A DNA stretch of 64,000 bases from Chloroflexota bacterium (GCA_029782225.1 JAKOVF010000005.1:12949-76948), one strand, 5' to 3'. Positions 118 to 23,263 are shown, numbered from the stretch's first letter. Made by a program: numbers and translations. Notes: generated from the letters alone by a model not told the origin.

Positions 118-852
118 TTAGAGTTTTTGCATTAATACGCAGATCTCAGTTGCAAATGGTTTGAGATAATAGCCCGCCCACATTCTTTGTTTGATACTCA
201 GATCAGCCAGAAAATTTCTTCCGAATAGATTGAATTGATTGAGGCCATAACCGAAATACCCGAGCGGAGTTAATTTAGATTTTTTCCCAAGCTGGTAGAT
301 CTCTCGTGCTGTGTATTCTCTGTAATGCATAATAGCCGACAAAATCGGCTGCTCACCTCGAAGTATTCTGATGATGTTTTCGATTCTCAACCGGTTGGGG
401 GTGCAAATCGCAACTACACCACCCTTCGCACAACTTCGCACACAGGACTTCAAATATTCGGCGGGGCGGTTAAAGTGTTCGAATACTGCAAAACTCACCA
501 CGAGGTCGTATGGCTCTCTGGGAGTAAAAACAAGAAAATCGTGTACGCTTCGCTGAACTTTGAGGTGAGGATATTCGGCATTGGCTTTAAGCACGCTTTG
601 CTCTGAATAATCAATAGCGTCGACACGCTTGACGAAAGGATACTGCACCATCAAAACGTCTTGATAGCCGCATCCACAGCCAACATTTAATACTGTGGCT
701 GGCTGAACCCGGCGAAACAGTTGCTGGATCTCAAATGTTCTAGAATAATCCCAGTCTGAAGATAAGTATGTTCCCCATTCCTCGGTGATCTTCTCATCGA
801 AAAATTGTCTCTGATCTTCAATATATTCTGGATATCGATCTTGAACTGGCAT
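118..852 (-). CDS. Class I SAM-dependent methyltransferase
   Basis: Motif I VLNVGCGCGY is followed by an acidic residue. Its length and local context fit a glycan-modifying methyltransferase. Confidence 0.75.
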   Translation of the reverse strand: MPVQDRYPEYIEDQRQFFDEKITEEWGTYLSSDWDYSRTFEIQQLFRRVQPATVLNVGCGCGYQDVLMVQYPFVKRVDAIDYSEQSVLKANAEYPHLKVQRSVHDFLVFTPREPYDLVVSFAVFEHFNRPAEYLKSCVRSCAKGGVVAICTPNRLRIENIIRILRGEQPILSAIMHYREYTAREIYQLGKKSKLTPLGYFGYGLNQFNLFGRNFLADLSIKQRMWAGYYLKPFATEICVLMQKL

Positions 853-924
853 TTACTCAACTCCTCTTAAATGTGAAACCAACAATATTGACTGAAACCA
901 CCCGGTATTCCCGACCCGGAAGAA

Positions 925-1854
925 TTAGATGGGATAGCCCCAACAAGCCAGATCCCGGTCAAGCCATACCGAAGTTCTATAGTTGCTGACAGCATAAAAA
1001 GATCGGATGAATGCTTCATCAGCTTCACTCAATATCGGTGGACGCTTACGAATTGAGGACAGTTTCCTGAATGTCAAGCCGAGTTTTCGAAGTAGTCCTC
1101 GAAGGGCAGACTGTTCTTCAGGCACCAAACTGTAAGAAGTGGAAAGCGCCTTGTTTTGGTCTGCCTCTGATAGGTCCATGGGAAAGAAGGGTACTTCTAA
1201 AAACCTACATAACCCGTGTAAAACGTTTTCCTCATCACTGGCAATCTCCTCTAGGATCATTACATGGATATTTTCTTTGCCAAAACAGGCTGCATATGAT
1301 TCAAGCAGCCGGTCATAGGCAGCAGCATAGGCTGCCGCCTTTCCCTCGAGCGTGCTCAGAAAATCGACGAAAAAACAGCGCCCAGCCGGGAAGTGTGGAA
1401 GATAATGCAGATACATAGAACGAAACCAATCAAATTGGTTCCTCAAAACAATGAGAATCCGGGCATCAGGTAAAGCATGTTTAATCCTGCGCGCTAGTTC
1501 AGCATGGTCAGGCGAAATCACCGTTCCATCCATACGGCCATTCAATTTAACTGCCCAGTGAGCAGACCATTCTGGATTGATAGAAGTAGAATAATCTTTC
1601 TGAGGTGTCTCCTTAAGAACATATCCCAAGGAAAGGCTCTCATACATGTCAATAAAACATGAGGCTGATTGTTCGTTCTCAAAAAATTTTAGATATCTCT
1701 GTTTTCGAATCTCATCGTCCGATTCGAGTTGAAAAAACCAGGCTCTACGGGTCCAATGAATACTTGGATGCTGAGTGAAATAGCTTCGTAGATAGGTTGA
1801 GCCTGACCTCATATAGCCAACGTAAACGATATTTGGTTTGGTATGGTTATCCAT
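925..1854 (-). CDS. Sulfotransferase family protein
   Basis: A 5'-PSB-like YMRSGSTYL motif near the N-terminus and a 3'-PB-like RNQFDWFRSMY motif are typical of PAPS-dependent sulfotransferases. Confidence 0.65.
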   Translation of the reverse strand: MDNHTKPNIVYVGYMRSGSTYLRSYFTQHPSIHWTRRAWFFQLESDDEIRKQRYLKFFENEQSASCFIDMYESLSLGYVLKETPQKDYSTSINPEWSAHWAVKLNGRMDGTVISPDHAELARRIKHALPDARILIVLRNQFDWFRSMYLHYLPHFPAGRCFFVDFLSTLEGKAAAYAAAYDRLLESYAACFGKENIHVMILEEIASDEENVLHGLCRFLEVPFFPMDLSEADQNKALSTSYSLVPEEQSALRGLLRKLGLTFRKLSSIRKRPPILSEADEAFIRSFYAVSNYRTSVWLDRDLACWGYPI

Positions 1855-1937
1855 AGGTATCCTCTTCGCCTGCCATGCACATTACTTAAATTAACCAAAT
1901 CAGAAGGTAAATCCAGCCACTTATTGATCTGGTCCTG

Positions 1938-2753
1938 CTACAACTTCTCGCAAACAAGAATATGCCGAAAGGCAAACAACTTCAATAACGGCAAATTACT
2001 GATCCACTCATCCAGCAGTTTACCCTTAACTCGCCGGGATAATAATTGTGTCCAGACCGGCAGCAAGAACAGCTTGAGCCATTTGGGACGATCGCCTCCC
2101 CATAATGGGAGTATCTGAAAGGTGCGGTGCTCCACGATTTTCATCCCTGCTTGATGGATCATCCTTTTCATGGCCGGCACGGAAACCGCATAATTTTGGG
2201 CCCATCCCAGTTCTTTATGGTAAGCATTGACTACGATCACATTTAACGAATACAGGTTACCCAGGTCAAGAATACATTTGCCAGTGGGTCTTAAAACCCG
2301 TGCTATTTCGCTGATCACCATGCCAACATTGGGGATTACATACAGTGAGGAAAAGGAATAAGCAAGATCGAAGGAGTTTGACCGAAATGGCATTCTGCAG
2401 GCATCGCTGCAGGCATAGCGCGTGTTTTGCAAATCTTTTGTAATTTTGTCCTTGTTGGCTTTTTGGAGATAAGGCAGGCTAAAATCCACTCCGGTGCATG
2501 TCTGCATTCTGCCGGCAAATCCCATGAGGTGCTGGCCTGTTGCGCAGCACACATCCAGGACATTTGAATGGTCGGCATAAAAGTGAACTAAATCCAAGCG
2601 GATCTTCAACAAGATATCGCTATAGGTCTCTGGAACCGGGGGCGGCAGATGGTTAATGGTGTCGACCGTATAAATTCCTTCTTTTGTGAAAAGGTCCCGC
2701 TGGTCTGACGCTTGTTGAATATCTGTGGTTTTATCTACAGGTTCAAGCTTCAT
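1938..2753 (-). CDS. Class I SAM-dependent methyltransferase
   Basis: Motif I VLDVCCATGQHLMGFA. The reading frame overlaps the downstream gene by 11 bp, consistent with an operon. Confidence 0.7.
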   Translation of the reverse strand: MKLEPVDKTTDIQQASDQRDLFTKEGIYTVDTINHLPPPVPETYSDILLKIRLDLVHFYADHSNVLDVCCATGQHLMGFAGRMQTCTGVDFSLPYLQKANKDKITKDLQNTRYACSDACRMPFRSNSFDLAYSFSSLYVIPNVGMVISEIARVLRPTGKCILDLGNLYSLNVIVVNAYHKELGWAQNYAVSVPAMKRMIHQAGMKIVEHRTFQILPLWGGDRPKWLKLFLLPVWTQLLSRRVKGKLLDEWISNLPLLKLFAFRHILVCEKL

Positions 2754-3918
2754 TGCTTTTCTTTCCCAGTAAACCAGTCAATCCCAGCAGAAGCTTTCTC
2801 ATGAGGCTGATCATCTTCCTGCCCAAGATCACCGTCGACAGGTCACGACTCGCGTTTAGCCAATTTCTGATTATTGTTTTCTTGTCCGGCATCAATTTCG
2901 CCTCCACCGGAGTCAAAACTGCCGGCGATTCAGGTTCCGGCTGCGGCATAATCAGTTCGCCTCTAAACAACCGGTGCAATTCTCCGCCAAACTTGCCTTT
3001 GAAATCGGTCAGTCCTTTATCTTTCCCTTCGGCTGCGTTGGGGAAAGCCTCGCCGGTTTCATACCATGCACACCCATCCGCTTTTGCAGCCAGGACTGCT
3101 TCCCAAAAGAGGAGGTAGTTAACACCCGATTTCAGATGTGCTGTTTCTGAGCAACCCGTGTGATAGAGCTCCGATGAAGAAAAACGCGCATCATTGTGAA
3201 ATGCAACGGGGGATCCGTCCGGAGAAAAACCTACCCAAAGGATATGATGTGAGTCTGGTTGCGCGGCGATGCCTTCGAAATACGATTTAGGGTGCGACTG
3301 GACACCGGTGCGTTGATAGGTTTCAATGTGAACGCGATAATACTCATCGACCATTTCCCTCCAGGAACATCTGCGGGCTGAATATCCGGCGGAGCGTGCC
3401 TGTTTAATTTTTTGCCTTGCATCCTTTGCCATTCCGAACCACAGATCCTCTTCGCTCTGTAGAAGATCAATGATCCGTGTATGCGTTGAAACGTCCGTAA
3501 AACCGACTTCAACGAGGGGATTCACACCCCAGCCGTTCTTCAATGAAGATTGACAAATTGGACTAATAACAACTGTTATTCGCTCTGCACAAAACTGCGC
3601 GGCTATATCCCTGGCGCGTGCCCAACATGCCTCCCATAAGCGCTGGCGAACCGCCCTTGAAGCACCAGCTGCGATCACCGGGCCGCCATGGCCCCAGCCG
3701 CTCGAAGATAATCTTTTTCCGGCTGAAATCCAATGAAGCGGCATGATAGCAACCAGTTTGCCGTTCTCACGGACGGCAAAACTGAGCTGCTGCATATTCC
3801 AAACGAGGGTGACCATCTCAAGCCATTCAGCCAGGCTGAATACCCATCCATCCTCTGAATGGTAGACAATCTCATCCCATTCCCGTGCTTTTATTTGATT
3901 AAATCCAATAAATTCCAT
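2743..3918 (-). CDS. FemAB-like / Acetyltransf_6 (BioF2-like GNAT) family protein. The real start is probably the internal MEFIGF codon at 3918.
   Basis: The ~370-aa overall layout resembles FemAB/GNAT-like acyltransferases common in polysaccharide loci. The internal ATG leaves an 8-bp gap to the upstream asnB-like stop. Confidence 0.45.
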   Translation of the reverse strand: MEFIGFNQIKAREWDEIVYHSEDGWVFSLAEWLEMVTLVWNMQQLSFAVRENGKLVAIMPLHWISAGKRLSSSGWGHGGPVIAAGASRAVRQRLWEACWARARDIAAQFCAERITVVISPICQSSLKNGWGVNPLVEVGFTDVSTHTRIIDLLQSEEDLWFGMAKDARQKIKQARSAGYSARRCSWREMVDEYYRVHIETYQRTGVQSHPKSYFEGIAAQPDSHHILWVGFSPDGSPVAFHNDARFSSSELYHTGCSETAHLKSGVNYLLFWEAVLAAKADGCAWYETGEAFPNAAEGKDKGLTDFKGKFGGELHRLFRGELIMPQPEPESPAVLTPVEAKLMPDKKTIIRNWLNASRDLSTVILGRKMISLMRKLLLGLTGLLGKKSNEA

Positions 3919-3926
3919 GGACGTTA

Positions 3927-5816
3927 TTATCCGCTCTTTATCATTGTCTCTGCTGGAGATGTGTGGCTTAACCACATACCAAGCATAAACCCCAACATCA
4001 TATCCCCAGCTGACGCTCGAAGCTTGACTCCAGCACATAGATCTGCAATAAACTGCTTCCAAGCTGAGCGATAGGACTCTGAATCTATGCCGGCCTGATC
4101 CAAAGCATCATAGGCACGAACAAATGCAGTCCGATAATTTGGATCGTCAACGATATTGTTTTGCCAGCGAAGATTAAAACCCATTCCTTTCTTGCGAGCC
4201 CAGGCAATTTCCTTTCCGACCAGTTTTTCGTAGAAAAGTTTTGGTAGATACTTATTTGTTTTGGGCGAGAAAGGATCTGCCACCTTGTATTGGTGAGGCA
4301 GCCTGGCCGCGAACTCGATCAGACGGTAGTCAAGGTACGGACTGCGGACTTCCACCTGCGCAGCAAGCCCGGAGATATCAGGCAAACGGTAATTGCTGTC
4401 ACTCGTGGAACAAAGCAAGTTCAGATACATCAACCGATCCAGAAAATTATCCACCCCCGCCTCGGTAATATCCTTCATGATCCTGTCAACCATTGAGAGC
4501 ACCGCATTCCCAGTGGGTGTAGCTAATTCCCCGGGAGAGAGACGCGCGCTGAGATTGGAATAAACATAATTTCCCCACATTCCTGCGAGCGAATCTGCCT
4601 GTTTTTTTATTCCAAAATGGCGATGAAGAAACGGCAGACGTTGAAATCGTTCCAAGTCATCCTTGCGGGCTACCTCGTCCCCGATATAACCAGTAAAAAT
4701 TTCATCCGATCCATTGCCGCTTAAAACCACCTTTGCGAGTGGACGTATGGTCTCATAAAGCCGGTGTGAATAGACCAGCGGAAGCTGTACAGACGGCTGG
4801 TCATAAAATGAATAAGTACGCGGCAGGCCGCTGAGCAAGTCCTCATGGTAGTTAAATTGAATATATCGCCAGGTCAAACCCAGCTCACGCGCGACGCGTT
4901 CCGCAATCATTGTCTCAGGGCTGGGATCGTCATCCGTGTGATAGTCGATTGTGTAACAATCCAGAGAGACATTCAATCGTCGAGCACAGAGCGCAGCAAT
5001 TGTCCCGGAATCAACGCCGCCCGAAAAGGTGAGAGCAAGCGGCACGTCGGAACGCAGACGAATGGCAATGGCATCCGTCAACAGAGTTTCGTATTCTTCA
5101 AGCAACTGAGAAAGCGAGCGGCGGCTTTTCCTGCGGAGGTCCATCTGCCAGTAGCGGCCCACTTGCGGGACCGGATTCTCGGGACTGACCCAGGCAAAGA
5201 AAGCCGGTGGAAGCGCCCTCGCTTGCTCATACACGGTCAGCTCGAGAGGAAAGCCTGCGACCAGACGGTACAATTCGATCGCACCGATAGACAGTTTGCC
5301 GGTCCAACCCGGAATAGAGCGAAAGGCATCGAGCGTAGAGGCAAAATAAAAGTCACCGCCAATTTCGCACCAAACCAGCGGCTTCTTGCCAAGCCGGTCG
5401 CGCGCCAGAAACAGTCGCTTTTTCTGCGTATCCCAGATTGCAAAGGCAAACATGCCATTTAGATCCTCGCAGACATGTTCCCCTTTCAACTTGAACCCTT
5501 CCAGAATTGCCTCGGTATCGCTCTGAGTCTCGAACCGGGCACCCATCCGCTCGTAGGCGGTGCGTAATTCTTTGTAGTTATAGATTTCGCCGTTGTAGAT
5601 GATCACATATCGCTTGCTAACATCCCACATCGGCTGGTGACCGGTTGTCAGGTCAATAATGCTCAAGCGGGAATGGAAAAAATGAAGGTTTTTCTCATCG
5701 CTCCATTCATCCTGTTCATCGCGCCCGCGATAAAGGATGCTGGATCTCATGTACCGGGTTGTTGTCTCCGGGATTCGTCCAATATCAGTTGAGATGATGC
5801 CGGCAATTCCGCACAT
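3927..5816 (-). CDS. Asparagine synthase (glutamine-hydrolysing) family amidotransferase. In a glycan locus this is probably a uronic-acid amidating enzyme.
   Basis: An MCGIAGI N-terminal Ntn Cys2 nucleophile fixes the start at 5816. An SGGVDSG PP-loop ATP pyrophosphatase motif lies in the C-terminal half. Confidence 0.85.
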   Translation of the reverse strand: MCGIAGIISTDIGRIPETTTRYMRSSILYRGRDEQDEWSDEKNLHFFHSRLSIIDLTTGHQPMWDVSKRYVIIYNGEIYNYKELRTAYERMGARFETQSDTEAILEGFKLKGEHVCEDLNGMFAFAIWDTQKKRLFLARDRLGKKPLVWCEIGGDFYFASTLDAFRSIPGWTGKLSIGAIELYRLVAGFPLELTVYEQARALPPAFFAWVSPENPVPQVGRYWQMDLRRKSRRSLSQLLEEYETLLTDAIAIRLRSDVPLALTFSGGVDSGTIAALCARRLNVSLDCYTIDYHTDDDPSPETMIAERVARELGLTWRYIQFNYHEDLLSGLPRTYSFYDQPSVQLPLVYSHRLYETIRPLAKVVLSGNGSDEIFTGYIGDEVARKDDLERFQRLPFLHRHFGIKKQADSLAGMWGNYVYSNLSARLSPGELATPTGNAVLSMVDRIMKDITEAGVDNFLDRLMYLNLLCSTSDSNYRLPDISGLAAQVEVRSPYLDYRLIEFAARLPHQYKVADPFSPKTNKYLPKLFYEKLVGKEIAWARKKGMGFNLRWQNNIVDDPNYRTAFVRAYDALDQAGIDSESYRSAWKQFIADLCAGVKLRASAGDMMLGFMLGMWLSHTSPAETMIKSG

Positions 5817-5827
5817 AAGGGCACCTC

Positions 5828-6715
5828 TTAAGCCTTGTTGGCGTCCTCGACCCAAAACCCATCCGGATATCCATACCAGGCCGGGATTCTGCCTTGCATC
5901 GTATCGCGCAAAAAGCGAACATCCGCTTCGGATAAATACTCGTGATACCCACCAACCTGGCCTTTGCGCACATGAAATGCTTCCTGCGTGCTCGCCGTGT
6001 CTCCCGTCGCAAAAATCGGCAACCCGGAGCTGGAGTAGACAAGGGTCCGGGTATGTCGATTATCCATTTCCAGCTTCCGCATATTCTTGAAATCACTGAA
6101 AGCAACGGCTTGACCTATGTAATCCTCACGGATCGGAATCTGAAAAAACTCCAGGAGGCGACAAAACTCTTCGGCGGGTTTAAATCGTAAATCCTCGTAA
6201 CGCATCAGCATTAGCTTTGGGATAGAGAGTCGTCCAGCCTCCCAGAGCTGAAGGAAGGCTACTGCTTTTTCAACGCCCTGAACCGGATTGCGAATGTATT
6301 CAGAAATGTCGCCCTGATAAGGCGGGGTTGCCTGTGTCTTTGCCTGCCAGAATAGAGAAACCAAAACGTCCGGGATATTGCGAACCAGAAGCATGACGTT
6401 CGTATGACGCCAACACGAAACGGTATTCTCCATCGTCAGGTCGGCAGCTGTTTGATAAGTCCATTCCAAATTCCCATGCGTGAACTGAATCAATGGTACG
6501 CGAGGATCGATGTATTCGAACTGGTCAAACAGCGGTAACGGTAATTTCTCATCCCGCCCTGTGAACAATTGGACATACTTGCCCAACATCACACGCAGCC
6601 AGGTTGTGCCAGATTTAGGATAGCCAACCACATAATATTCCTGCAACGCCGGGTGTATATCCTCTCGGGTCTTCCGGCCAAACCACTTTTGGAACTTGGT
6701 CAATACTCTTTTCAT
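5828..6715 (-). CDS. Sulfotransferase domain protein
   Basis: Canonical 5'-PSB motif YPKSGTTWL and 3'-PB-like LLVRNIPDVLVSLFW. The start was chosen at MKRVLTK (6715) to avoid a 62-bp overlap with wzt; this start is uncertain. Confidence 0.75.
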   Translation of the reverse strand: MKRVLTKFQKWFGRKTREDIHPALQEYYVVGYPKSGTTWLRVMLGKYVQLFTGRDEKLPLPLFDQFEYIDPRVPLIQFTHGNLEWTYQTAADLTMENTVSCWRHTNVMLLVRNIPDVLVSLFWQAKTQATPPYQGDISEYIRNPVQGVEKAVAFLQLWEAGRLSIPKLMLMRYEDLRFKPAEEFCRLLEFFQIPIREDYIGQAVAFSDFKNMRKLEMDNRHTRTLVYSSSGLPIFATGDTASTQEAFHVRKGQVGGYHEYLSEADVRFLRDTMQGRIPAWYGYPDGFWVEDANKA

Positions 6716-6737
6716 GCTACTGTTACTCCAAGACGGA

Positions 6738-8054
6738 TCAAGGGCTGAAAACTTGCCACTCCGAACGTTGTGCAAAAGATGTCTCAGACTGTGAAACATT
6801 GCTGCCGTTTAGATAATCGTCAATATCTACATTGATATGAATCGTGTCGCTGATACTATCCAGCCAGCGCTTATCATCTTTGCTTACAACCTGACCGATC
6901 GTGACCATAAGAATATAACTTCCACCCACCAGCAGCAATTCTGGAATCACGCATTCAAGGTAGCCATCTCCTGAAAGCTTTAATTCCGAGCGCGAGTGGT
7001 GTACCCCAACCGTCATGACCTGCAGGCCCGTATAGTTCAGGAAGTTCACGTTGCAAAAAGCAGAAAGATCCTCGTTCAGATGAAATCCAATCCGGATTCG
7101 CAATCCTCTCCCTGTCTTGAACTCAACCGATTCAGTCCCGTCCATATTGTGAGTGGAAATCCAGGTGAGGATCGGTTTGCTTCCGTCCCAGCGCTTGACG
7201 TTCTCCCGCAGGTCAAGATAACTGATGCGAGGACGTCCACCTTCGGCTCGAAGGCGTTCTTCATCAATCTGGTGAATATCCTTCAGGTACCTTTCGGTGG
7301 TGGCATGAGCACTTCCCCAATAAAGGATCCTGCCTCCATCTAAATATAATCCCCGGTCACATAAACGTGCTATGGAAGTAAGCGAATGGCTCACAAACAA
7401 TACTGTTTTCCCGCTTCTGGCAGCGCCCTCCATTTTATCAAGACTCCTTTTTTGGAAAGTCGCATCTCCAACAGCCAGCACTTCATCCAGAATCAGGATC
7501 TCCGGGTCAAAATGGGCGGCCACTGCAAAAGCCAGACGGACGTACATTCCGCTTGAGTAATGTTTGACCGGGGTATCAATGAATTTCTCAACCCCTGAGA
7601 AATCCACGATCTCATCAAACACCCGATCTATTTCGGCGCGTTTCATGCCAAGAATAGCCCCATTCAAGTAAACATTCTCTCGCCCGGTCAACTCCGGATG
7701 AAAACCTGTGCCAACCTCAAGCAGGCTACCCACCCGGCCATAGAGGTCAACTCGTCCACAAGTCGGGGCTGTCACCCTGCTCAAGATCTTAAGCAGGGTG
7801 CTCTTTCCTGAACCATTACGTCCGATGATGCCCAGCACCTCCCCGCGTTTTAGTTCAAAGGAAACATCCTTTAGCGCCCATAGCTCATCTAGTTGATCAG
7901 CGCCGATACGCGCCAGCCGGGGATCAAAAATCCGGCGCACCGCACGCGCAAAGGAGGTGGTTGCTGATTGAATCAGCGTATCAGGCCTCTGCTTGGCCGC
8001 GCCAATGTAATATAGCTTGCTCAGATTTTCCACACGCACCATAACATCATTCAT
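6738..8054 (-). CDS. wzt: Polysaccharide ABC exporter ATP-binding protein, Wzt/TagH-like, with a ~180-aa C-terminal extension
   Basis: Walker A GIIGRNGSGKSTLLK, an ABC signature and a Walker B ILILDE. The NBD is followed by an extra beta-rich C-terminal domain, as in Wzt proteins that bind capped glycan termini. Confidence 0.85.
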   Translation of the reverse strand: MNDVMVRVENLSKLYYIGAAKQRPDTLIQSATTSFARAVRRIFDPRLARIGADQLDELWALKDVSFELKRGEVLGIIGRNGSGKSTLLKILSRVTAPTCGRVDLYGRVGSLLEVGTGFHPELTGRENVYLNGAILGMKRAEIDRVFDEIVDFSGVEKFIDTPVKHYSSGMYVRLAFAVAAHFDPEILILDEVLAVGDATFQKRSLDKMEGAARSGKTVLFVSHSLTSIARLCDRGLYLDGGRILYWGSAHATTERYLKDIHQIDEERLRAEGGRPRISYLDLRENVKRWDGSKPILTWISTHNMDGTESVEFKTGRGLRIRIGFHLNEDLSAFCNVNFLNYTGLQVMTVGVHHSRSELKLSGDGYLECVIPELLLVGGSYILMVTIGQVVSKDDKRWLDSISDTIHINVDIDDYLNGSNVSQSETSFAQRSEWQVFSP

Positions 8055-8056
8055 AT

Positions 8057-8911
8057 TTACACCAGATCAATGAAGGTTTTTTCAACGCGATGGAAATAAA
8101 GCAAGCCTGTTATCAGCAGGCCCAGCACTAGAAGAAGAGAGATACCCATCAGCGGATAAGGCGGAAGCGGCGATCCAAGCAGCGCCCAGCGAAACCCTTG
8201 TACTACGACTGCCATTGGATTAAGCCAGTAAAGTGTGCTCACAATTCCCTGGGGCAACAGCGTAGGTGAATATGCGACAGGGGAAGCATACATCCACATC
8301 GTGGTCAACAAGGAGATTGCCTGTGCGATATCCCGGTATTGAACTGTGAGCGCGGATAGCCATACCCCGGCTGCCAAAGCTGTTAGCAGGGCAAGGAAGA
8401 TAAAAATCGGCAGGGCCACTGCCGACCAACCCGGGAAAATACCGAAACCAAATAGAATGAGAACAAGGAGAGTAAATGCGATGGCAAAGTCCACGAGGGA
8501 AATAACAAGAGCAGAGATGGTCCCAATCAATCTTGGAAAATAGACTTTTGCCGAGAGAGCCGAACCTCCCAGCAGGCTGCTGCTTGCTCCTGTCAGCGCC
8601 CGGGAGAATAATCCCCATGCAGTCAGCCCCGTCAAAGAAAAAACGGCATAAGGTATTCCCTCCGAAGGCAGCTTTGCCAGCCCACCAAAAATGAGAGTAA
8701 AGACCAACATATTGAAGATCGGAGGGATAACCGCCCAGCCCACGCCGATCGCGGTCTGTTTATACCGAACTTTGAGATCGCGCCAGACAAAGTAATAAAG
8801 CAACTCACGATATTCCCGCAGCTCCCGGAAATCGGGGAATGGCAATCCCTGAACTGGTTGAATGACGAACATCGGCTCGGAGGCCTGAGACTGGTAATCC
8901 TTTTGAATCAT
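8057..8911 (-). CDS. wzm: ABC-2 type polysaccharide exporter permease (Wzm-like)
   Basis: Six predicted TM helices and an ABC-2 permease topology. Its stop lies 3 bp from the wzt start. The start was chosen at MIQKDY (8911), which is preceded by AAGGAAAA. Confidence 0.8.
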   Translation of the reverse strand: MIQKDYQSQASEPMFVIQPVQGLPFPDFRELREYRELLYYFVWRDLKVRYKQTAIGVGWAVIPPIFNMLVFTLIFGGLAKLPSEGIPYAVFSLTGLTAWGLFSRALTGASSSLLGGSALSAKVYFPRLIGTISALVISLVDFAIAFTLLVLILFGFGIFPGWSAVALPIFIFLALLTALAAGVWLSALTVQYRDIAQAISLLTTMWMYASPVAYSPTLLPQGIVSTLYWLNPMAVVVQGFRWALLGSPLPPYPLMGISLLLVLGLLITGLLYFHRVEKTFIDLV

Positions 8912-8956
8912 GTTTTCCTTTGGAGAGGAATGAAGCAGAAGAGCAACGAGCATTCA

Positions 8957-8998
8957 GTTTTTGAATTCTCACATGAAAGGCAATCACTGTCAAGGGAT
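8957..8998 (-). promoter_or_regulatory. Conserved promoter/operator element, copy 1. Read on the minus strand it is ATCCCTTGACAG-N-TTCATGTGAGAATTCAAAAACTGAATG: TTGACA, a 17-bp spacer, then TGTGAGAAT.
   Basis: It aligns nearly base-for-base with 16047-16088. The -35 TTGACA and the extended -10-like TGTGAGAAT are 17 bp apart. It sits 46 bp upstream of the wzm start. Confidence 0.55.
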
Positions 8999-12905: not shown

Positions 12906-14003
12906 TCAGGACAGGAAGTCGCGTATAGCATTCACAACTTCATCCTGCTGGGTGCCGCTCAGCTCCGGGTAAAGCGGTAACGCAAGAGTTTCGCGGCTGG
13001 CCTGCTCCGCAAAGGGGAATTGGCCTTCTTTGTACCCGAATTTCCTGCAGGGCACAGATAAATGCGGCGGCAGTGGATAATATACTTCCGAGGCAATGCC
13101 TTTTTGTTTCAGGAAGGCCTGCAGCTCATCCCGCCGGTCGGATCGAATTACGTACAGATGATAAACGTGACGGCCCCACTCACATTCCATTGGCACAGTG
13201 ACGCGCAAACTGGCAAGTTGTTCGCTGTAACGCTCAGCAATCTCGCGCCGCTTTTCATTCCAGGCATCCACGTGAGGAAATTTCGCCTGCAGGATCGCAG
13301 CCTGCAGCGCGTCGAGGCGGCTGTTATATCCCACTTCCTCTGAATAGTATTTCTTCTTCCAGCCATGGGTTCTCAGCATTCGCATCCGCTCAGCCAGCGC
13401 GGAATCGTTCGTCACGACCATGCCGCCATCACCAAACGCGCCCAGGTTCTTGGTAGGGAAAAAGCTCAGGCACCCAATATCGCCTATCGAACCTGTTTTC
13501 CTGCCTTTATACTCGGCGCCAAAACCCTGGGCATTATCTTCGATCACTTTCAATCCGTGTGCCCGTGCCAGTTCCATCACAGGATCCATATCTGCTGGAT
13601 GCCCGTAAAGGTGGACGGGAATGATCGCTTTCGTCCCTGGCGTAATGCGAGTCTCGATTTCTGCCACATCAATTTCATAAGTTGATGGGTCAACATCCAC
13701 GAACACCGGTGTTGCGCCCACAGACATGACGGTTCCTGCCGTGGCAAAAAATGTATAAGCCGGGATAATGACTTCATCCCCTGCACCGATATTCAAGGCG
13801 CGCAATGCCAGAACCAGAGCATCTGTTCCGGAGGCGAGACCAATCGCGTGGTCCACGCCGAGATACGACGCGATACTTTCCTCAAACCGGGTCACTGCTG
13901 GCCCAAGGATGAAGTGACCCGATTCCAACGTCGCGTTGACCGCGGCGTCAATTTCGTTCTTGATGGAATGATACTGCGCAACCAGATCAACCAATGGGAT
14001 CAT
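12906..14003 (-). CDS. wbpE: DegT/DnrJ/EryC1 family PLP-dependent sugar aminotransferase, WbpE-like (UDP-2-acetamido-2-deoxy-3-oxo-glucuronate aminotransferase)
   Basis: Sequence pattern throughout ([28 protein letters not shown]) matches DegT-family enzymes and closely resembles WbpE. The start was chosen at MIPLVDL, giving a 4-bp overlap with the upstream gene. Confidence 0.85.
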
Positions 14004-14593
14004 TCTCCGCTTCTTTCCGGACCGACCAGCTGGTCTCGTTTCCAATAAGAATCACCACAACTGTTGCAGACAGCCCGCTCGTGCCCATCGTGAGCTGTGA
14101 ATTCAAGCTGTTCACCGCACTGACATATCCACCCGCGTAATCGAGCAGGTGAACCGTAGACCAGAGCATAGTCCGGCACATCGCGCGTGACGACAGAGCC
14201 CGCGCCCACAAAACTGTAACATCCCAGGGTCACACCACACACAATCGTCGCATTCGCTCCTATGGATGCACCTCTGCGTACCAACGTGGTTTTATATTCA
14301 TCCTTGCGGCTGACATGGCTGCGCGGGTTGATCACATTGGTAAAAACCATGGACGGACCGAGGAACACATCATCCTCCACGATCACGCCGGTATAAAGCG
14401 AAACATTGTTCTGGATCTTTACATTGTTGCCAATCGTCACATCCGGGGAAACAAGCACATTCTGACCGATGTTGCATCGCTCGCCAATACGAGCCTTTGG
14501 CATCACATGGCAAAAATGCCAGATCTTTGTGCCTGCGCCTATTTCTGCGCCTTCATCTACATAGCTGGATTCGTGAACAAAATAGTCTGACAT
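14000..14593 (-). CDS. wbpD: Left-handed beta-helix (hexapeptide) sugar N-acetyltransferase, WbpD-like, with an extra C-terminal Cys4 zinc-ribbon-like tail
   Basis: Hexapeptide repeats and long stretches ([41 protein letters not shown]) resemble WbpD-type UDP-2-acetamido-3-amino-2,3-dideoxy-glucuronate N-acetyltransferases. The C-terminus reads CQCGEQ...CNSCGD. Confidence 0.85.
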
Positions 14594-14603
14594 AAACGCA
14601 TAC

Positions 14604-15545
14604 CTACTTGTTCAACAGGGGATGGGCGCACTCATCTTTTGGCGAGATGGGGGTCGTACGAATCGCATGTGTCAACGTAATGGAAGGGCGGGCCTCGGCG
14701 ATCCCAAAGCCGCGTCCTGCTAGTGTTTCTTCATAGACGCGGGTATGGAGATCCGTAAAACCCTCGGAAAACTCAATTTCCTTGCCATCCACTGTGATAG
14801 AACGATAAGTTGTTTTGCCGCCTGCTTTCGCCGGAAACGGCAGGTCCCGGGAATCGACAGAGAGGAACCAACGCACGCGCGCGTGTTCCAGCTCGATAAA
14901 ACCTGACATGCAATTGTTATCAGAGTAGTACACCCGAATATCTCCAGAAGGGCCAAAGAGCCATAACAGGAGGTCAAAGAAATGCACTCCTATATTTGTG
15001 GCAACGCCACCTGATTTATCCGGCTGGCCCTTCCACGAGACGTGGTACCAGGGGCCGCGGCTTGTGATGTACGTCAGTTGCACATCGTGCTGGCCGCCTT
15101 CCTGCTCAAGAGACTGTTTCAGCTTGAGCAGCTCCGGGTGCACGCGCAGCTGTAAGACCGTATGGATGCGGTGCTGCGTCTCTGTCTCCAGCTCCTCCAG
15201 GGCGTCGAAGTTCCAGGGGTTGATCACCAGCGGTTTTTCGCAGATCGCATTCGCCCCAACCCGCAGGGCCAGACGGCAATGTGCATCGTGCAAATAATTG
15301 GGCGAACAAACGGAAACATAATGGACTCGGTTTTCGTCCGGACCCCGGCGCAATTTCTCCAGATGGCGATCAAAACGCTCGATCTCGGTGAAGAACTTTA
15401 CATCGAAGGAGTATTGATCCAACAGTCCTACAGAGTCCTTGGGGTCAACAGCCGCCACCAGGCGATTTCCCGTATCCCGAATGGCACGCAAATGACGGGG
15501 CGCAATGTAACCGCCCACGCCAATCACCGCAAAGTTTTTTGACAT
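14604..15545 (-). CDS. wbpB: Gfo/Idh/MocA family oxidoreductase, WbpB-like (UDP-N-acetyl-2-amino-2-deoxyglucuronate 3-dehydrogenase)
   Basis: N-terminus [37 protein letters not shown] is closely similar to WbpB-type enzymes. Tightly linked to the wbpD/wbpE homologs. Confidence 0.85.
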
Positions 15546-15566: not shown

Positions 15567-16031
15567 TTAGTCTTTGGTGTTTACTTGATAATCCTGCCCA
15601 ACGACCTTCATCGTTACACCGTTTGGTGCATCGCTTAAATCAATCCCCGCCTCAATGCAAGTCAAACGCAGAATATCCGTTGCTTCATCATCGCCTTCGA
15701 GATAGACCTGCTTGACACCCTTTTGCTGCAATTCAGTAATCAGCAATTTCGCTCTCTTACGGAAGCGACTATAGACTTTCAGGGAATCGCGCGCATAGAG
15801 CAAGGCGCGCTGGGTAAAGACAGACATCCCTTCCGGGGTGAGATCGTACTTCAAACGGGTTCGGTCCAAATGCGAGACCTTTACCCAGCCTCGATGGATC
15901 AGCCGTTTGATATACCAATTCACACTGCCGACGGCGATGCCGAGCCGATCAGACAGACTGGCCTGCGTCACCATGGAGTCTTGCGCAATCTCGTTGAGGA
16001 GTTCGTATTCGTGTGGTTTTATTTCTGTCAT
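15567..16031 (-). CDS. Winged-helix DNA-binding regulator with a C-terminal domain of unknown function
   Basis: The N-terminal ~70 aa (ELLNEIAQDSMVTQASLSDRLGIAVGSVNWYIKRLIHRGWVKV) look like a MarR/IclR-type wHTH. It is the first gene of the wbpB/D/E operon and is preceded by the conserved promoter element. Confidence 0.5.
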   Translation of the reverse strand: MTEIKPHEYELLNEIAQDSMVTQASLSDRLGIAVGSVNWYIKRLIHRGWVKVSHLDRTRLKYDLTPEGMSVFTQRALLYARDSLKVYSRFRKRAKLLITELQQKGVKQVYLEGDDEATDILRLTCIEAGIDLSDAPNGVTMKVVGQDYQVNTKD

Positions 16032-16046
16032 AGGTTTGAGAATTCA

Positions 16047-16088
16047 ATTTTTGAATTCTGACATGGAAATTAAGCCCTGTCAAGGGAT
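16047..16088 (-). promoter_or_regulatory. Conserved promoter/operator element, copy 2 (minus strand: ATCCCTTGACAGGGCTTAATTTCCATGTCAGAATTCAAAAATTGAATTC). It contains the perfect palindrome GAATTCAA-TTT-TTGAATTC.
   Basis: Same layout as copy 1: TTGACA, a 17-bp spacer, TGTCAGAAT, then TTCAAAAANTGAAT. It lies 16 bp upstream of the regulator start codon. Confidence 0.55.
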
Positions 16089-16203: not shown

Positions 16204-17280
16204 CTAGCGAAGTTGCCGGGCTAAAATTTCGCAAATCTCCCCCGCTGCCTGCCCATCTCCATATAAAGCCGGACGTTCCCCTGACGGATGCCAGTTCTCA
16301 AATGCGGCGCGAATGGCATTCTTGTCCACTCCGGCAAGCCTGTTCCAGCCGGCTTCGACAGTCTCCACCCACTCAGTCTCTTCTCGCAGGGTAATACACC
16401 GCACGCCGAGCAGGTAGGCCTCCTTTTGCATGCCGCCCGAATCGGTCAGGATGCAATCGGCATTCTCCTGTAAAACCAGCACATCGAACGCACCGAGAGG
16501 CTCGATCAATTTAACGTTTTGTGAAACGGCCAGGCCCATTTCCCCGATGATCTTGCGCGTGCGCGGGTGGACCGGGAATATGACCGGCTTCGACAGTGAA
16601 CCCAGCGCTTCCAGAATGGAAGTCAGGCGCGCGTGATCATCCGTATTCGCCGCACGATGGACGGTTGCCAGTGCATATTCGCCTTTTTTCACTCCAAGCG
16701 AACGCAGAATATGGGAATGCTTGCGCGCCAGAGCAAGATTATGCAGGAGCGCGTCGTACATCACATCGCCTACGCGGTGGACACCGTTCGTGATCCCCTC
16801 TTTGAGCAGGTTTTGAACGGCTCTATCGGTTGGACAAAATAAAAGTGTGGACACATGGTCGGTCAGCACGCGGTTGATCTCTTCCGGCATCGTTCGGTTA
16901 TAGGACCTCAGGCCGGCTTCCACGTGAGCGAGAGGGATCTGCGCCTTGGCCGCCGCGAGCGCGCCTGCCAGAGTTGAGTTGGTATCGCCATAGACAAGGA
17001 CGTAATCTGGTTTTAGCGAATCCAGAACCTCTTCAATTTCAATTAGCATTTTTCCGGTTTGCTCGGCATGGCTTCCGCCGCCGATTCCGAGATTGAAATC
17101 GGGCGGACGCATTTCCATCTCTTCAAAGAACACCTCCGACATGCCATAATCATAATGCTGACCGGTATGGATCATCACCTCATGGAACGTCCCGGCCAGT
17201 GCACGTGAAACCGGCGCCGCTTTGATGAACTGCGGCCTGGCCCCCACAATCGTTGCGATGGTTCTAGTCTTCTCGCCCAT
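16204..17280 (-). CDS. UDP-N-acetylglucosamine 2-epimerase (non-hydrolysing) family, WecB/WbpI-like
   Basis: N-terminal IATIVGARPQFIKAAPV and HTGQHYDYGMS motifs are typical of the WecB family. It is the last gene of the long minus-strand glycan operon. Confidence 0.85.
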   Translation of the reverse strand: MGEKTRTIATIVGARPQFIKAAPVSRALAGTFHEVMIHTGQHYDYGMSEVFFEEMEMRPPDFNLGIGGGSHAEQTGKMLIEIEEVLDSLKPDYVLVYGDTNSTLAGALAAAKAQIPLAHVEAGLRSYNRTMPEEINRVLTDHVSTLLFCPTDRAVQNLLKEGITNGVHRVGDVMYDALLHNLALARKHSHILRSLGVKKGEYALATVHRAANTDDHARLTSILEALGSLSKPVIFPVHPRTRKIIGEMGLAVSQNVKLIEPLGAFDVLVLQENADCILTDSGGMQKEAYLLGVRCITLREETEWVETVEAGWNRLAGVDKNAIRAAFENWHPSGERPALYGDGQAAGEICEILARQLR

Positions 17281-18403
17281 ATACTACACTCTGAAAAACA
17301 CTTTCGTACTGCTCTGTAACCCGCTCGATATTGAAATGAGCTGACTTAACGAGACTAGCCTTGCGGTAGTGCAGCAGGAGGCTCTGGTCTAATATCAATT
17401 CGCGCAACGTGCGCTCGAACTTAACAAGGTCATCAATTTCAACCAGGCAGCCGTTGTGACCATCATCCACGAGGTCGAGAAATCCGCCGATGTTACTGGA
17501 AACGATGGCAAGCCCTCTCGCAAGCGCCTGCACGCCAACCACCGGTAATCCCTCGGAAAGGGACGGCATGAACAAAATGTCACTTCGCGAGAACCAATCC
17601 AGCACATCTTCAGGCGTAACCCAGCCCGGCAAATCGAAGCGGTCCTGTAAACCACTCTTTTCAATTTCGGCTTTTACCTGCCCCATTAAAAAGCCGTCGC
17701 CGAGCATGGCACAGCGCCAGTCCAGGTCTTTGACCCTGGCGAGGACGCGCACGATCTCCAGCGGATTCTTTTGCGGAACGAACCGACCGGCAAACACCAG
17801 CTGAGGCGACCGATTGAGCCTGATCTCAGCAGGCGCGAGATGTTTCAGGTCCGCGCCATTTGGAATCACCTGAATATCAACGGGATAATGTCGCAGCGCA
17901 AGCTGACGCGTGTATTCACTGACTGCCACCGCGCGGCGAGCATGGTCCCAGATCGGATGAGTAAAGGGCAACACCCAGCGAAACCACGGATCGGTTTTTT
18001 CGGGGACGCCGCCGGGTACATCGCCAAGGTGGGCCGTCAAAACGTAGGGGACTCTGGTCAGCACAGATAATGCAAATGCAAGCGCGCCCGCGGGGACAGC
18101 AAAGTGCGCGTGGATCACATCGGGGCGAAAACTGAACATTAAACGGAGGCCAGCCCAAAGTCCCGCGAGAACGTAGGCAGACATCGTCCAAAAGCTCGCG
18201 CCGAAAAACTCCGTCCGAAACGAACGGATGCGATAAATGCTGAGTCCGTCCTTCTCCTCATAAAAAGGCAGGCCGCGCATGTGTGCGGTCAGGACGACCA
18301 CCTTGTGCCCGCGCTCGGCCAGCTTTCTGCAAATATCCTGCGCCGCGCGTCCGCCTCCACCTCCGATCGGTGGAAATTCATGGATGAGTGTAAGGATACG
18401 CAT
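17264..18403 (-). CDS. Glycosyltransferase family 4 (GT-B). Start at MRILTL.
   Basis: MRILTLIHEFPPIGGGGGRAAQ N-terminus and a C-terminal EGLPVVGVQALARGLAIVSS region are characteristic of GT4. Confidence 0.75.
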   Translation of the reverse strand: MRILTLIHEFPPIGGGGGRAAQDICRKLAERGHKVVVLTAHMRGLPFYEEKDGLSIYRIRSFRTEFFGASFWTMSAYVLAGLWAGLRLMFSFRPDVIHAHFAVPAGALAFALSVLTRVPYVLTAHLGDVPGGVPEKTDPWFRWVLPFTHPIWDHARRAVAVSEYTRQLALRHYPVDIQVIPNGADLKHLAPAEIRLNRSPQLVFAGRFVPQKNPLEIVRVLARVKDLDWRCAMLGDGFLMGQVKAEIEKSGLQDRFDLPGWVTPEDVLDWFSRSDILFMPSLSEGLPVVGVQALARGLAIVSSNIGGFLDLVDDGHNGCLVEIDDLVKFERTLRELILDQSLLLHYRKASLVKSAHFNIERVTEQYESVFQSVVYGRED

Positions 18404-18411
18404 GCAGGGAT

Positions 18412-20409
18412 TCAGTCCTGGAATGGATTTTTGCAATCGGGATTGGATGGCCGGGGGACAAAGACAACAATGTTGGTTGATACAAGAGTCTCAGAAGGTT
18501 TGTAGGCGCACAACAGCGGCGCACCGACATATTTTACCCAGGCCACATTTTCTTCCACAAACGCGCCTTCTTTTTGCGTTGTGAATTTCTGGTCTTCGGC
18601 AATGATAATGGCAAAGCGATGATTCTTGAGGTCAGCGTAATATTGCTCAAGATACGCACGATTGCCCGACATCGCCATTTCCATCAGCTCGATCTGTTCG
18701 TATTCAGAAACCAGCGGAACATTTTTGACCATATCAAACGTGAGCAGTTGACGCTCCGTGACAAACAAAACCTGGCCGTTGTTTGCAATCACATCAGATG
18801 TGACCTGCTGCAAGCGCTGGACATCTTTTTGTGCATTGACCGTATCATAGCGAGGCAAGAAGCCAATTTGCGGAAGAGCGAAACCCAGCGGGACAAGGAT
18901 GGCTGCTACCGTTACGGGCCAACTGACCTGCCCCCAGGCAGGTTCCGTTCCTTGCTCACCCGCAACAAGCCCGGCAATGATGGAAGTAGCGATCAAGGCA
19001 AGGAGGACGAGGAATGCATCCATGTTATGCAAATCACCGCCGCCGCCGATCTTCACGCTGACGACCATTCCACCGAGCAACAGGACGAGCAGCAGAGATA
19101 AAAGCGCCAGCCAGCGCAAGGGATGCAGAGATGCAAGCCTTCCGCGTATCATCTGATACAGGGCAAGGATAAGTGGCAAGGAAACGATCAATAATCCAAG
19201 CAAAACCCCGGGCGGGAAATTTTCGTTCGGCAGCAGACGATTCCACAACAAGTCGGATGTGAAGCTCGACCCGAAGCTTCGTACATCTGCGTCTCCAGAA
19301 ATGCTGATGTAGAGGAATTGCGACGCCAGGGCAGCCGCGATCCCGCTGACTCCCCAGATAAATGGAGTGATCCAGTAGTGCCATCCTTTTTGAGCGAGAG
19401 GCATTTCGAGCAGATAGATGGAAATCCCCAGCATTGCGGGAACGGGAAACCAGTTGACGCGGCTGATTCCTGCCCACAACGACGACAGGATTACGAAGAG
19501 CAAAGACCTGCCCGGGCGGCGGGCTGAGACGCCGACCAAAATCAGGATGACACAAACCTGAAGATGATAATAAACTGCGCCCTGCAGGAAATAAAGAAAC
19601 GCCCAGGCCGCAATAAATATTGACATCCACCCCTTCAACTGCAAGCGACGCGCCAGAAGAACAGAGGATGTGCCCGTCAAGGCAATCCACAACAAGGCCT
19701 GCCACATGCGGTGGAACCAGAGCGGCAGGCCTTTGATCAGAAAGGGAATGGACATCAACAGGTAACGCGAGGGGTGGAGAAACGGCAGTGCCAGATCTTC
19801 ATCATAGATAGACTTTGCAAAATAAAGGGAGGCGTAATAATGACGCGCCGCCTCGGAATAGCCTATCGAAAACGGGAAATCCGTGATGACGCTGAGATGT
19901 CCATAAATTTGATAAACCAATCCCTGCACGAGAATCGTCAGGGCAAAGAGCGCAGGCCAGCTTCGATCCGTTATCAGCTTGAGGCCCAGCGACTGGAGGA
20001 GACTCATCCAGAGAAACATCCACAAAATCGGGAAAATGCCCGGGAGGATATTTCCAAAAACAAACAGCCTTATGATCCAGACCAGCGCAAAGCCTAGAAC
20101 CAACAAGACAATGCCAAACCATCGAAAAGCCGATGACCTATTTTTGAATTCGATTTTTTCGATCCAGTGATTGCTATCATCGCGTGCGGGCCAGCGAAGG
20201 AGGAACAACCCTGCAAGGATGTTGAAGGCAAACAATAACAATACATACAGCCACTTTGAGCGCCAGAGAATGATCTCCAGCTTTGACGCCTGTTGAACGG
20301 TTCCATAAACAGCCAGCAGGCTGAGCAGGATACTCGCCCAGAGAAATGTCTGCCAAAATGTCCTGGAAGAGATGGATTTCATTCGCGTTATGGCTGTGAT
20401 GGCGGACAT
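18412..20409 (-). CDS. Large polytopic membrane protein (~13 TM plus a ~180-aa C-terminal soluble domain), putative GT-C-type glycosyltransferase; paralog A
   Basis: Multi-TM N-terminal ~480 aa with a DFPFSIGYSEAARHYY loop motif and a conserved GGGGDLHNMDA segment. About 40% identical to the adjacent paralog. Confidence 0.4.
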   Translation of the reverse strand: MSAITAITRMKSISSRTFWQTFLWASILLSLLAVYGTVQQASKLEIILWRSKWLYVLLLFAFNILAGLFLLRWPARDDSNHWIEKIEFKNRSSAFRWFGIVLLVLGFALVWIIRLFVFGNILPGIFPILWMFLWMSLLQSLGLKLITDRSWPALFALTILVQGLVYQIYGHLSVITDFPFSIGYSEAARHYYASLYFAKSIYDEDLALPFLHPSRYLLMSIPFLIKGLPLWFHRMWQALLWIALTGTSSVLLARRLQLKGWMSIFIAAWAFLYFLQGAVYYHLQVCVILILVGVSARRPGRSLLFVILSSLWAGISRVNWFPVPAMLGISIYLLEMPLAQKGWHYWITPFIWGVSGIAAALASQFLYISISGDADVRSFGSSFTSDLLWNRLLPNENFPPGVLLGLLIVSLPLILALYQMIRGRLASLHPLRWLALLSLLLVLLLGGMVVSVKIGGGGDLHNMDAFLVLLALIATSIIAGLVAGEQGTEPAWGQVSWPVTVAAILVPLGFALPQIGFLPRYDTVNAQKDVQRLQQVTSDVIANNGQVLFVTERQLLTFDMVKNVPLVSEYEQIELMEMAMSGNRAYLEQYYADLKNHRFAIIIAEDQKFTTQKEGAFVEENVAWVKYVGAPLLCAYKPSETLVSTNIVVFVPRPSNPDCKNPFQD

Positions 20410-22349: not shown

Positions 22350-23263
22350 TTTGTTTCGACTGCTTCTTTTCGAGAGACAGTCATGGCTTCCATAATGCCG
22401 GGGAGGAACAATGCGCCCGGCAGGCTGGCAGTGATAAACAAGATGCGGATCAACAGTGCCAATGTAATGCCCTCGACCTTGTCGAGGCCCGCCATCTGAA
22501 CCAGGAGGAAGGAGAAGACCAACTCCTGCACGCCATATCCATTGATCGAGATTGGTAGGAGCGTCACGAAGTAAGTGAGACTCCAGATTCCGGCGATCAG
22601 CCAGTAGGAGACATTATCGTGCAACCCTGAGCTTAAAACGTAAATGGCAGCAAAAATGAACGCCATGTTGCCAAGCGTACAGGTGAGCGAAAGCAAGAGT
22701 GCGAGCGGTTTTTTGAGCCAGATTGAGAAGGCGGACAGGGTACGGCGCACAAACCCCATGATCTTTTGAAAGATGGGAGGTAACGCCATCATCTTGAATG
22801 AAAGGGTCGGAAGGACCTTCAATAGCGGGCCAATCCCTAACGGCAAAGCCAATGCCATTCCAAACATGCCAATCAAACGGTCCGCTACGAGGGAGGCCAC
22901 ACAGACGGCCCGGTCAAAGCCAAGCTGCATCGCACCGCCCAATCGCGCCAGATCCCCGCCAACAGTCGTCGGCAGGAAGTTCGAAGCGAACAAGCCGGTA
23001 AAAGTCAGCGCCGTGCTGTCTTTGATCGAAATATCCACGCCGCCAGAACGCATCAGTACATGCCAGCGCCCAACGACAAACAGCCGCGAAACCATCATGC
23101 AAGCCAGTGCCAGGAGGAATTGTTGAAACGAAACCTGCTTGATAGCGGCCCATATATCGCTCCAGTTCTCCTCACGGATCAAAAAGAGCAGCAGCAGGAC
23201 AGCCAGCCCGGTCCCGGCCCAGCGGATAACCACGCCCCTGTTTCTGGAAAGCCAGGGAATCAC
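22346..23263 (-). CDS. Flippase-like integral membrane protein (LPG-synthase-TM/UPF0104-type)
   Basis: About 300 aa with 7-8 TM helices. It is translationally coupled (4-bp overlap) to a GtrB/ArnC-like GT2, as is typical for this family. Confidence 0.45.
   Translation of the reverse strand: MIPWLSRNRGVVIRWAGTGLAVLLLLFLIREENWSDIWAAIKQVSFQQFLLALACMMVSRLFVVGRWHVLMRSGGVDISIKDSTALTFTGLFASNFLPTTVGGDLARLGGAMQLGFDRAVCVASLVADRLIGMFGMALALPLGIGPLLKVLPTLSFKMMALPPIFQKIMGFVRRTLSAFSIWLKKPLALLLSLTCTLGNMAFIFAAIYVLSSGLHDNVSYWLIAGIWSLTYFVTLLPISINGYGVQELVFSFLLVQMAGLDKVEGITLALLIRILFITASLPGALFLPGIMEAMTVSRKEAVETK

Follow-up and report, generated by a model that had tools for sequence, protein, structure and literature searches.

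The 64,000-nt stretch of Chloroflexota DNA analysed here (the window) appears to hold three operator-bearing promoters, which head predicted minus-strand units extending from 27197 to 16204, from 16031 to 12906 and from 8911 to about 118. The second unit begins with REG (15567..16031, minus strand), the gene of a 154-aa winged-helix protein (HTH_24) that is the candidate binder of a palindrome found at these promoters. We consider it probable that a REG dimer binds this palindrome and represses its own, the wzm-wzt and the gmd unit, the arrangement being that of a strong housekeeping promoter with a built-in operator. As judged from comparative sequence data, a previously undescribed, order-wide regulator-operator system for surface glycan is well supported. 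It would be a switch of an ordinary type and would involve no new mechanism.

Two of the three sites are near-identical. A 47-nt motif of the form ATCCCTTGACAG-N9-TYCATGTSAGAATTCAAAAAYTGAAT is present in two minus-strand copies at 8952-8998 (copy 1, ATCCCTTGACAGTGATTGCCTTTCATGTGAGAATTCAAAAACTGAAT) and 16042-16088 (copy 2, ATCCCTTGACAGGGCTTAATTTCCATGTCAGAATTCAAAAATTGAAT). The pair had been noticed in an earlier sequence-only reading, which placed it at 8957-8998 and 16047-16088. The copies are real, but the sequence as written out there ends at 8952/16042 rather than at 8957/16047, and the coordinates fall 5-10 nt short of the conserved block, as the palindrome continues to 8948/16038 (...TGAATGCTC / ...TGAATTCTC). 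The variable gap, given there as 9-10 nt, measures 8-9 nt. With up to three mismatches allowed, a degenerate 47-mer matched solely 8952-8998 and 16042-16088 in the 64-kb window and matched in 0 of 100 shuffles. A repeat search returned the pair as 51 nt (8948-8998 versus 16038-16088) with 82% identity, the similarity ending at the promoter edges.

Copy 1 (8948..8998, minus strand) differs from the family consensus GAGAATTCAGAAACTGAATGCTC by one mismatch in its core. Its -35 element TTGACA (8993-8988) is followed by a 17-nt spacer ending in CATGT (YRTGn), the -10 element GAGAAT (8970-8965) and a 23-bp palindrome GAGAATTCAAAAACTGAATGCTC (8970-8948), which is composed of GAGAATTCA-AAAAC-TGAATGCTC and includes the -10 element; transcription is predicted to start near A8958-8959. 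Copy 2 (16038..16088, minus strand) is built alike, with TTGACA at 16083-16078, a 17-nt spacer ending in CATGT, CAGAAT at 16060-16055 and the palindrome CAGAATTCAAAAATTGAATTCTC at 16060-16038 (CAGAATTCA-AAAAT-TGAATTCTC), the arms of which are complementary at 9/10 positions. The 47-nt motif ends here 6 nt ahead of the REG ATG (16031), and the predicted start near A16048 leaves a leader of about 17 nt. In general terms the operator is a 23-bp imperfect palindrome, GAGAATTCA-N5-TGAATKCTC, that reaches from the -10 element to approximately +11, with half-site centres about 10 bp apart. A start about 7 nt past the -10 element would fall in the centre of the palindrome and would place the right arm at approximately +3 to +11. 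When the region 8000-17500 was scanned with the sigma-70 consensus, copies 1 and 2 ranked first and second, each with 10/12 matches and a TG before the -10 element. GAGAAT and CAGAAT agree with the consensus at 4 and 3 of 6 positions, respectively, A2 and T6 being present. On the strength of the -35 element, spacer, -10 element and TG, both are predicted to be extended -10 promoters of the housekeeping (sigma-A/sigma-70) type.

Comparison with other genomes extends this assignment. More than 2000 homologues of REG, nearly all about 75-82% identical, are found in Anaerolineales/Chloroflexota MAGs. In 85 loci fetched via the REG protein alone (L001-L085), the site orthologous to copy 2 lies directly upstream of the REG start codon in 85/85 cases, within 2-8 nt, with the consensus cACTTGACAGG-N6-TTTCYRTGYGAGAATTCARAAAMTGAATKCTCA-N2-6-ATG. 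Further loci (L086-L193) were ascertained with the motif itself, and the conservation figures are restricted to the protein-ascertained loci. Among 72 distinct upstream regions the -35 box had a mean pairwise identity of 0.99, TGn with the palindrome core one of 0.93, the spacer one of 0.51 and the DNA at -60..-27 one of 0.29, compared with 0.78, 0.86 and 0.44 for the first, second and third codon positions of REG. The non-coding element is more conserved than the second codon positions of a protein with roughly 80% identity, at a divergence at which synonymous sites are saturated. The T and the G of the YRTGn upstream of the -10 element are each 99% conserved, and 211 of 233 core matches have TTGACA exactly 17 nt from the -10 element. 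All but one of the remaining 22 are reverse-strand reads of near-perfect palindromes; the sole forward-strand exception (L019) lacks a TTGACA -35 element. The promoter as originally read is thus supported: about 200 independent copies from other genomes show hardly any variation in TTGACA, in the 17-nt spacing, in TG or in the -10 element.

An exact-pattern scan with TGYSAGAATTCARAAAHTGAAT covered one genome per species in 185,579 species. It returned 108 stretches, of which 105 carry the complete promoter, with TTGACA at a distance of 17 nt and CTC at the end of the right arm; the other three are chance matches in AT-rich unrelated genomes, about as the information content of the pattern predicts. 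The hosts are nearly all Anaerolineales, Anaerolineae or 'Chloroflexota' MAGs. Sixty-six assemblies have one copy, 16 have two, 3 have three and one has four. The sequence-only reading had named a genome-wide search as the way to recognise a frequent repeat unrelated to promoters, and 1-4 copies per genome do not correspond to such a repeat.

A few contigs of other taxonomic assignment also carry the full promoter-operator. They are binned as Saprospiraceae (L094), Sumerlaeota (L125, GC 0.62), Elulimicrobium (L191) and Herpetosiphon (L147/L161); REG lies downstream in L125, L191 and L161, wzm in L147 and only a short ORF in L094, and no REG was seen in the Saprospiraceae-binned assembly. Probably these contigs are mis-binned Anaerolineales, horizontal transfer of the cluster being possible. 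In L139 (JAUXUL010000036.1, 16001-24000) four promoter-operators lie within 6 kb (800-6900), three of them preceding full REG paralogues, between which truncated wzm fragments and a PemK/MazF-like ORF are located. The array reflects either duplication at a hot spot or an artefact of MAG assembly. JADZCC01, CAWAKH01 and JAEURH01 hold two REG copies each, on separate contigs.

Beyond the hexamers, a factor site had been proposed to comprise the ATCCC flank, the spacer and the downstream palindrome. This stands for the palindrome, whose right arm is 93-100% conserved and mirrors the left arm, and falls for the other two parts. ATCCC is common to both window copies directly 5' of TTGACA (5/5; 8994-8998 and 16084-16088) but is unconserved in other genomes save for the C adjoining TTGACA; the shared flank may be due to chance or to local homogenisation between the two promoters. 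The CATGT of the spacer is the generic YRTGn -16/extended -10 element of RNA polymerase, and the match of 8/14 between the spacers of the window copies equals the family background of 0.51. According to the references of PMC2613000, the TRTGn (-16) motif goes back to Voskuil & Chambliss 2002 (J Mol Biol 322:521). Extended -10 promoters of this Gram-positive type likewise have the motif directly upstream of the -10 element, whereas the present family holds its -10 element at the non-consensus GAGAAT and uses TATAAT at a second type of site (see below).

The right arm requires an explanation other than sigma, because +3 to +11 is where sigma does not read. In the promoters described so far (type 1) the centre of the palindrome is RAAAM, at type-2 sites it is any triplet, and the arms are sequence-invariant. 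A dimeric winged-helix protein would read just such a site, in which the half-sites are invariant and spaced about 10 bp centre to centre while the middle is free. The -10 element GAGAAT is non-consensus yet invariant, presumably because it also serves as the left operator arm. Alternatively, the left arm could be conserved solely as the -10 element; then only the right arm needs a separate explanation.

The genes behind the element were compared for 200 distinct copies with a -35 element, pooled from all loci, by scoring the first downstream gene. REG follows 155 copies, wzm 19, a cytidylyltransferase-like gene 6 (4 + 2), gmd 3, a WbpB-like GFO/IDH/MocA gene 3 and a GT2 gene one. Two of the remaining 13 have short ORFs only (73 and 74 aa) and 11 have no downstream ORF, mostly at the edges of fetched stretches. 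The copies are oriented toward their downstream gene throughout. A separate site at every wzm was considered and rejected: among 18 wzm homologues of the window's type, a copy of the element was found directly ahead of only 6, whereas 12 share a strand with REG and lie behind it, 8 as the next gene and 4 at a greater distance. All 18 thus follow such a promoter, and two alternative arrangements preserve the association of REG with the exporter. Comparative genomics thereby supports the earlier proposal of autoregulation and co-regulation of the exporter, as the motif is always found at REG.

The genes assigned to both window copies in the sequence-only reading, a wzm-wzt unit for copy 1 and a wHTH gene with WbpB/D/E-like genes for copy 2, were correct. 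Behind copy 2, REG is followed (12906..15545, minus strand) by 2,3-diacetamido sugar genes, namely a GFO/IDH/MocA oxidoreductase (WbpB-like, 14604-15545), a hexapeptide N-acetyltransferase (WbpD-like, 14000-14593) and a DegT aminotransferase (WbpE-like, 12906-14045); the same set follows REG in L001 and L004. The operon behind copy 1 (118..8911, minus strand) starts with wzm (ABC2_membrane, 8057-8911), the likely start codon being ATG 8911 with the ribosome-binding region AAGGAAAA and the ORF remaining open to 8953. It continues with wzt (6738-8054), a sulfotransferase (5828-6799), an AsnB-like amidotransferase (3927-5855), a GNAT/FemAB-like gene (2743-4062), a methyltransferase (1938-2753) and two further ORFs (925-1854 and 118-852). 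Wzt gives a weak match to a C-terminal carbohydrate-binding domain (Wzt_C, 22.8 bits, cut-off 30.4), and the sulfotransferase ORF comes after wzt and, as called, overlaps it by 62 nt. The sulfotransferase and the methyltransferase at 1938-2753 hint at a chain-terminating modification that would be read by Wzt. Divergent from the wzm promoter region, 9185-11665 (plus strand) encodes an 826-aa secreted protein with the signal peptide MKTGNHFLLGRGILVLALLSTLLM... and five tandem repeats of about 100 aa (10148-11638, 300-nt period; ...YNPTYQWNEVxGATWYYLWVNG...CSVxPST...WWVQTWN...GPWS). It has no match in Pfam/NCBIfam and could be a surface or glycosylated protein.

The third site is divergent, was absent from the sequence-only reading and lies upstream of gmd. 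This type-2 site, TATAATTCAGCCGCTGAATTTTG (27212..27234, minus strand), belongs to an upstream region that reads ggTATAATTCAGCCGCTGAATTTTGaaacAGGAGacaacATG on the minus strand. Its consensus -10 element TATAAT (27234-27229) overlaps a perfect 7+7 palindrome AATTCAG-CCG-CTGAATT (27231-27215), the register of palindrome and -10 element being the same as in copies 1 and 2. The predicted transcription start is near 27222, and an AGGAG Shine-Dalgarno sequence precedes the gmd ATG (27197); no good -35 element was found upstream. Allowing at most one mismatch, AATTCA-N5-TGAAT has 7 matches in the window compared with 1.9 expected. They fall in four places, three of which are the described sites. Other loci contain 17 distinct type-2 sites, and gmd is the gene immediately behind 15 of these (MPTALITGITGQ...). 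Their central triplet varies freely, and TTGACA is present as -35 element in only 4 of the 17. About 20 of 24 close gmd homologues (at least ~80% identity, the window's own included) have the operator within 200 nt. From these alignments, AATTCAG-N3-CTGAATT is the putative minimal operator shared by both types.

The operon behind the type-2 site (16204..27197, minus strand) comprises gmd (GDP-mannose 4,6-dehydratase, 26235-27197), a PMT_2-type GT-C (24216-26054), a GT2 (23260-24219), an LPG_synthase_TM-like gene (22346-23263), genes for two proteins of about 650 aa without family (20388-22349 and 18412-20409), a GT4 (17264-18436) and a UDP-GlcNAc 2-epimerase (16204-17280). The gene order from gmd through to the epimerase, with REG next, is the same in L001 and L004. 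Since no terminator-like site was found between the gmd operon and copy 2, the latter may serve as a promoter inside a longer unit. The two ~650-aa proteins are adjacent paralogues without a Pfam/NCBIfam match (DNA repeat with 75% identity), and a no-family protein of 611-760 aa occupies the equivalent position in L001 (758-3040) and L004 (2350-4185). These proteins may be a conserved membrane component of this glycan pathway.

The AF2 model of REG (pLDDT 84) consists of a three-helix wHTH with a beta wing (residues 6-64), a 38-residue helix (66-103) and an alpha/beta domain (108-152). In a fold search the modelled wHTH is MarR-like, and its winged-helix core can be superposed on MarR structures. 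The modelled HTH begins at residue 6, without the N-terminal dimerisation helix usual in MarR proteins. On the sequence level REG passes the Pfam threshold of HTH_24 only (39.3 versus 21.9 bits) and stays below the gathering scores of MarR (PF01047, 21.6 versus 24.6 bits) and MarR_2 (PF12802, 23.7 versus 27 bits). A sequence-profile search of the PDB gave marginal wHTH matches only, to eS25 and MarR. The best-scoring curated family is TIGR04176, 'MarR family EPS-associated transcriptional regulator', which is likewise found at polysaccharide loci; REG reaches 51.5 bits (E = 8.2e-14), below the cut-off of 88, with residues 7-102 aligned to positions 5-104 of 105. REG is about 50 residues longer owing to its C-terminal domain, for which no family match was obtained, and is a relative rather than a member of this family.

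Many database entries for REG begin within the operator, with ATG, GTG or TTG as the start codon, which results in proteins of 159-205 aa (MRIQKLNA..., MLKPMT...). The extension MRIQKLNA is the translation of the operator sequence AGAATTCAAAAACTGAATGCT, and the gene calls of such entries are corrected here. In L001-L085 and in the window (16031-16048) the predicted REG mRNA leader comprises about 17-20 nt and consists nearly entirely of the right operator arm. REG leaders contain no Shine-Dalgarno sequence, whereas gmd and many wzm genes have AGGAG-type sites; a leader of this kind next to the AGGAG of gmd fits a low output of the regulator.

Taken together, the operator overlaps the -10 element and the initial transcribed region of a predicted strong sigma-A/sigma-70 promoter, and a dimer of the MarR-like REG is its most likely binder. 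Since the site covers -12 to +11, bound REG would exclude RNA polymerase. REG would thereby repress its own operon with the WbpB/D/E-like genes (negative autoregulation), the wzm-wzt exporter and modification operon and, via the divergent third site, the gmd-glycosyltransferase operon. Speculatively, a signal, perhaps sensed by the C-terminal alpha/beta domain, would lift repression and thereby turn on the synthesis and the export of one surface glycan at the same time. The sites, their promoter geometry, their conservation, their restriction to these genes and to Anaerolineales and the lack of RNA-type covariation are shown in silico, whereas the existence of a ligand, REG as the binder and repression as its effect are what we infer, the last two from what is established for autoregulated wHTH repressors.

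MarR/marO-type autorepression is well established for E. coli MarR, FabT, MftR and other repressors with solved operator complexes. REG would resemble these in operation, through the proposed autorepression. It differs by scoring below the Pfam MarR and MarR_2 thresholds, by its almost absent N-terminal helix, by the additional 38-residue helix and alpha/beta domain, and by its candidate targets, which are genes of glycan synthesis and export instead of efflux or aromatic catabolism.

The sign of regulation is uncertain, since related cluster regulators such as ExpG are activators. A protein bound across -12 to +11 normally keeps RNA polymerase off the promoter, and this position is rarely used by activators. 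The present site spans just these positions, in promoters that already possess a consensus -35 element, 17-bp spacing and TGn. We therefore regard it as unlikely that REG activates, or both activates and represses, as ExpG/WggR does at galactoglucan promoters, although most type-2 gmd sites have no -35 element, a feature frequent among activator-dependent promoters. ExpG/WggR of Sinorhizobium meliloti is of the MarR type and belongs to the galactoglucan cluster, where it binds short palindromes upstream of several operons including its own and activates them (PMC1403797). Common to both systems are a regulator gene inside a polysaccharide cluster and a conserved palindrome repeated upstream of several operons. 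ExpG sites, however, overlap PHO boxes, whereas the site at REG lies across -10/+1 of a consensus promoter, a position that speaks for repression. Furthermore, the palindrome sequences are unrelated, and the hosts are Alphaproteobacteria and Chloroflexota, respectively.

Repression by REG also has to be weighed against the possibility that the palindrome is a true operator of another factor encoded elsewhere, REG being merely the first gene of one target operon. The association of REG with the site is drawn from sequence, and REG scores below the MarR family cut-offs, which leaves room for such a factor. A palindrome that adjoins a regulator's own gene and overlaps its promoter is, however, a classic mark of autoregulated wHTH proteins, and the REG site has this layout. 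In addition, all 85 REG loci have the site 2-8 nt from the start codon, 155 of the 200 distinct copies are located at REG, and even divergent REG proteins with about 60% identity (L125, L184) have both the site and the recognition helix in common with the others. A different binder thus appears quite improbable.

The part downstream of the -10 element might instead act as RNA, in the form of a leader hairpin or a protein- or ribosome-binding site that affects translation or stability. The right arm would make up the first ~12 nt of every transcript, the 23-mer folds as a hairpin (z-scores -3.3 to -4.1), and the REG leader has no Shine-Dalgarno sequence. With this -35/-10 pair, however, the predicted start lies inside the palindrome and the left arm would be untranscribed, and the hairpins are weak (-4 to -7 kcal/mol). 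Among 50 distinct cores only two pairs have both partners altered, and 440/500 shuffles attain this number as well; 83.8% of cells are paired compared with 81.8% in shuffles, which also show more of the further pair types. Of the 89 protein-ascertained copies, 26 have a mismatch at the central pair, or 29 when G-T does not count as paired, the innermost combinations being G-C in 59, A-C in 19, G-A in 5, G-T in 3, A-A in 2 and A-T in one, and pair 4/20 is A-G in 71/89 copies. No relevant Rfam family matched the region 8000-17000 at E <= 1, and the whole window likewise had no match at gathering score. Owing to the weak fold and the lack of covariation, the RNA hairpin was rejected, and a role as RNA is very unlikely.

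That the window copies are non-regulatory, arising by chance, recent local duplication, gene conversion or as a dispersed repeat or MITE, is extremely improbable: the ATCCC flank shared in the window and unconserved in other genomes would agree with it, but zero chance matches are expected, the similarity stops at the promoter edges, and the element stands at the same genes in >100 genomes with saturated synonymous sites, at 1-4 copies per genome and always in promoter orientation to the downstream gene. Dispersed repeats, MITEs and REP elements were likewise rejected, given 1-4 copies per assembly and three sites in the window that all face glycan genes.

Anaerolineae are mostly uncultured and abundant in sludge, sediments and soils. 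To our knowledge, very little is known about their transcription control. A full-text search of one literature library for the motif strings returned 0 papers, and a search on Anaerolineae with winged helix, wzm and promoter found no such regulon. The present analysis provides a candidate regulator-operator pair and a small putative regulon for the surface glycan machinery of this class, covering UDP-diacetamido-sugar genes, GDP-mannose dehydratase, cytidylyltransferases and the Wzm/Wzt exporter. As a compact promoter of consensus strength that is probably repressible, the element could also seed genetic tools for Chloroflexota. Tentatively, and with slightly less than even confidence, we propose a first defined regulon of Anaerolineales, in which a near-invariant cassette promoter-operator of about 46 bp precedes the operons for synthesis, activation and export, and in which the C-terminal domain of an atypical MarR-like regulator senses a nucleotide-sugar or envelope signal and so provides product feedback. 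If this holds true, the extreme conservation of the element would reflect a triple constraint, with RNA polymerase, repressor and leader all acting on the same bases.
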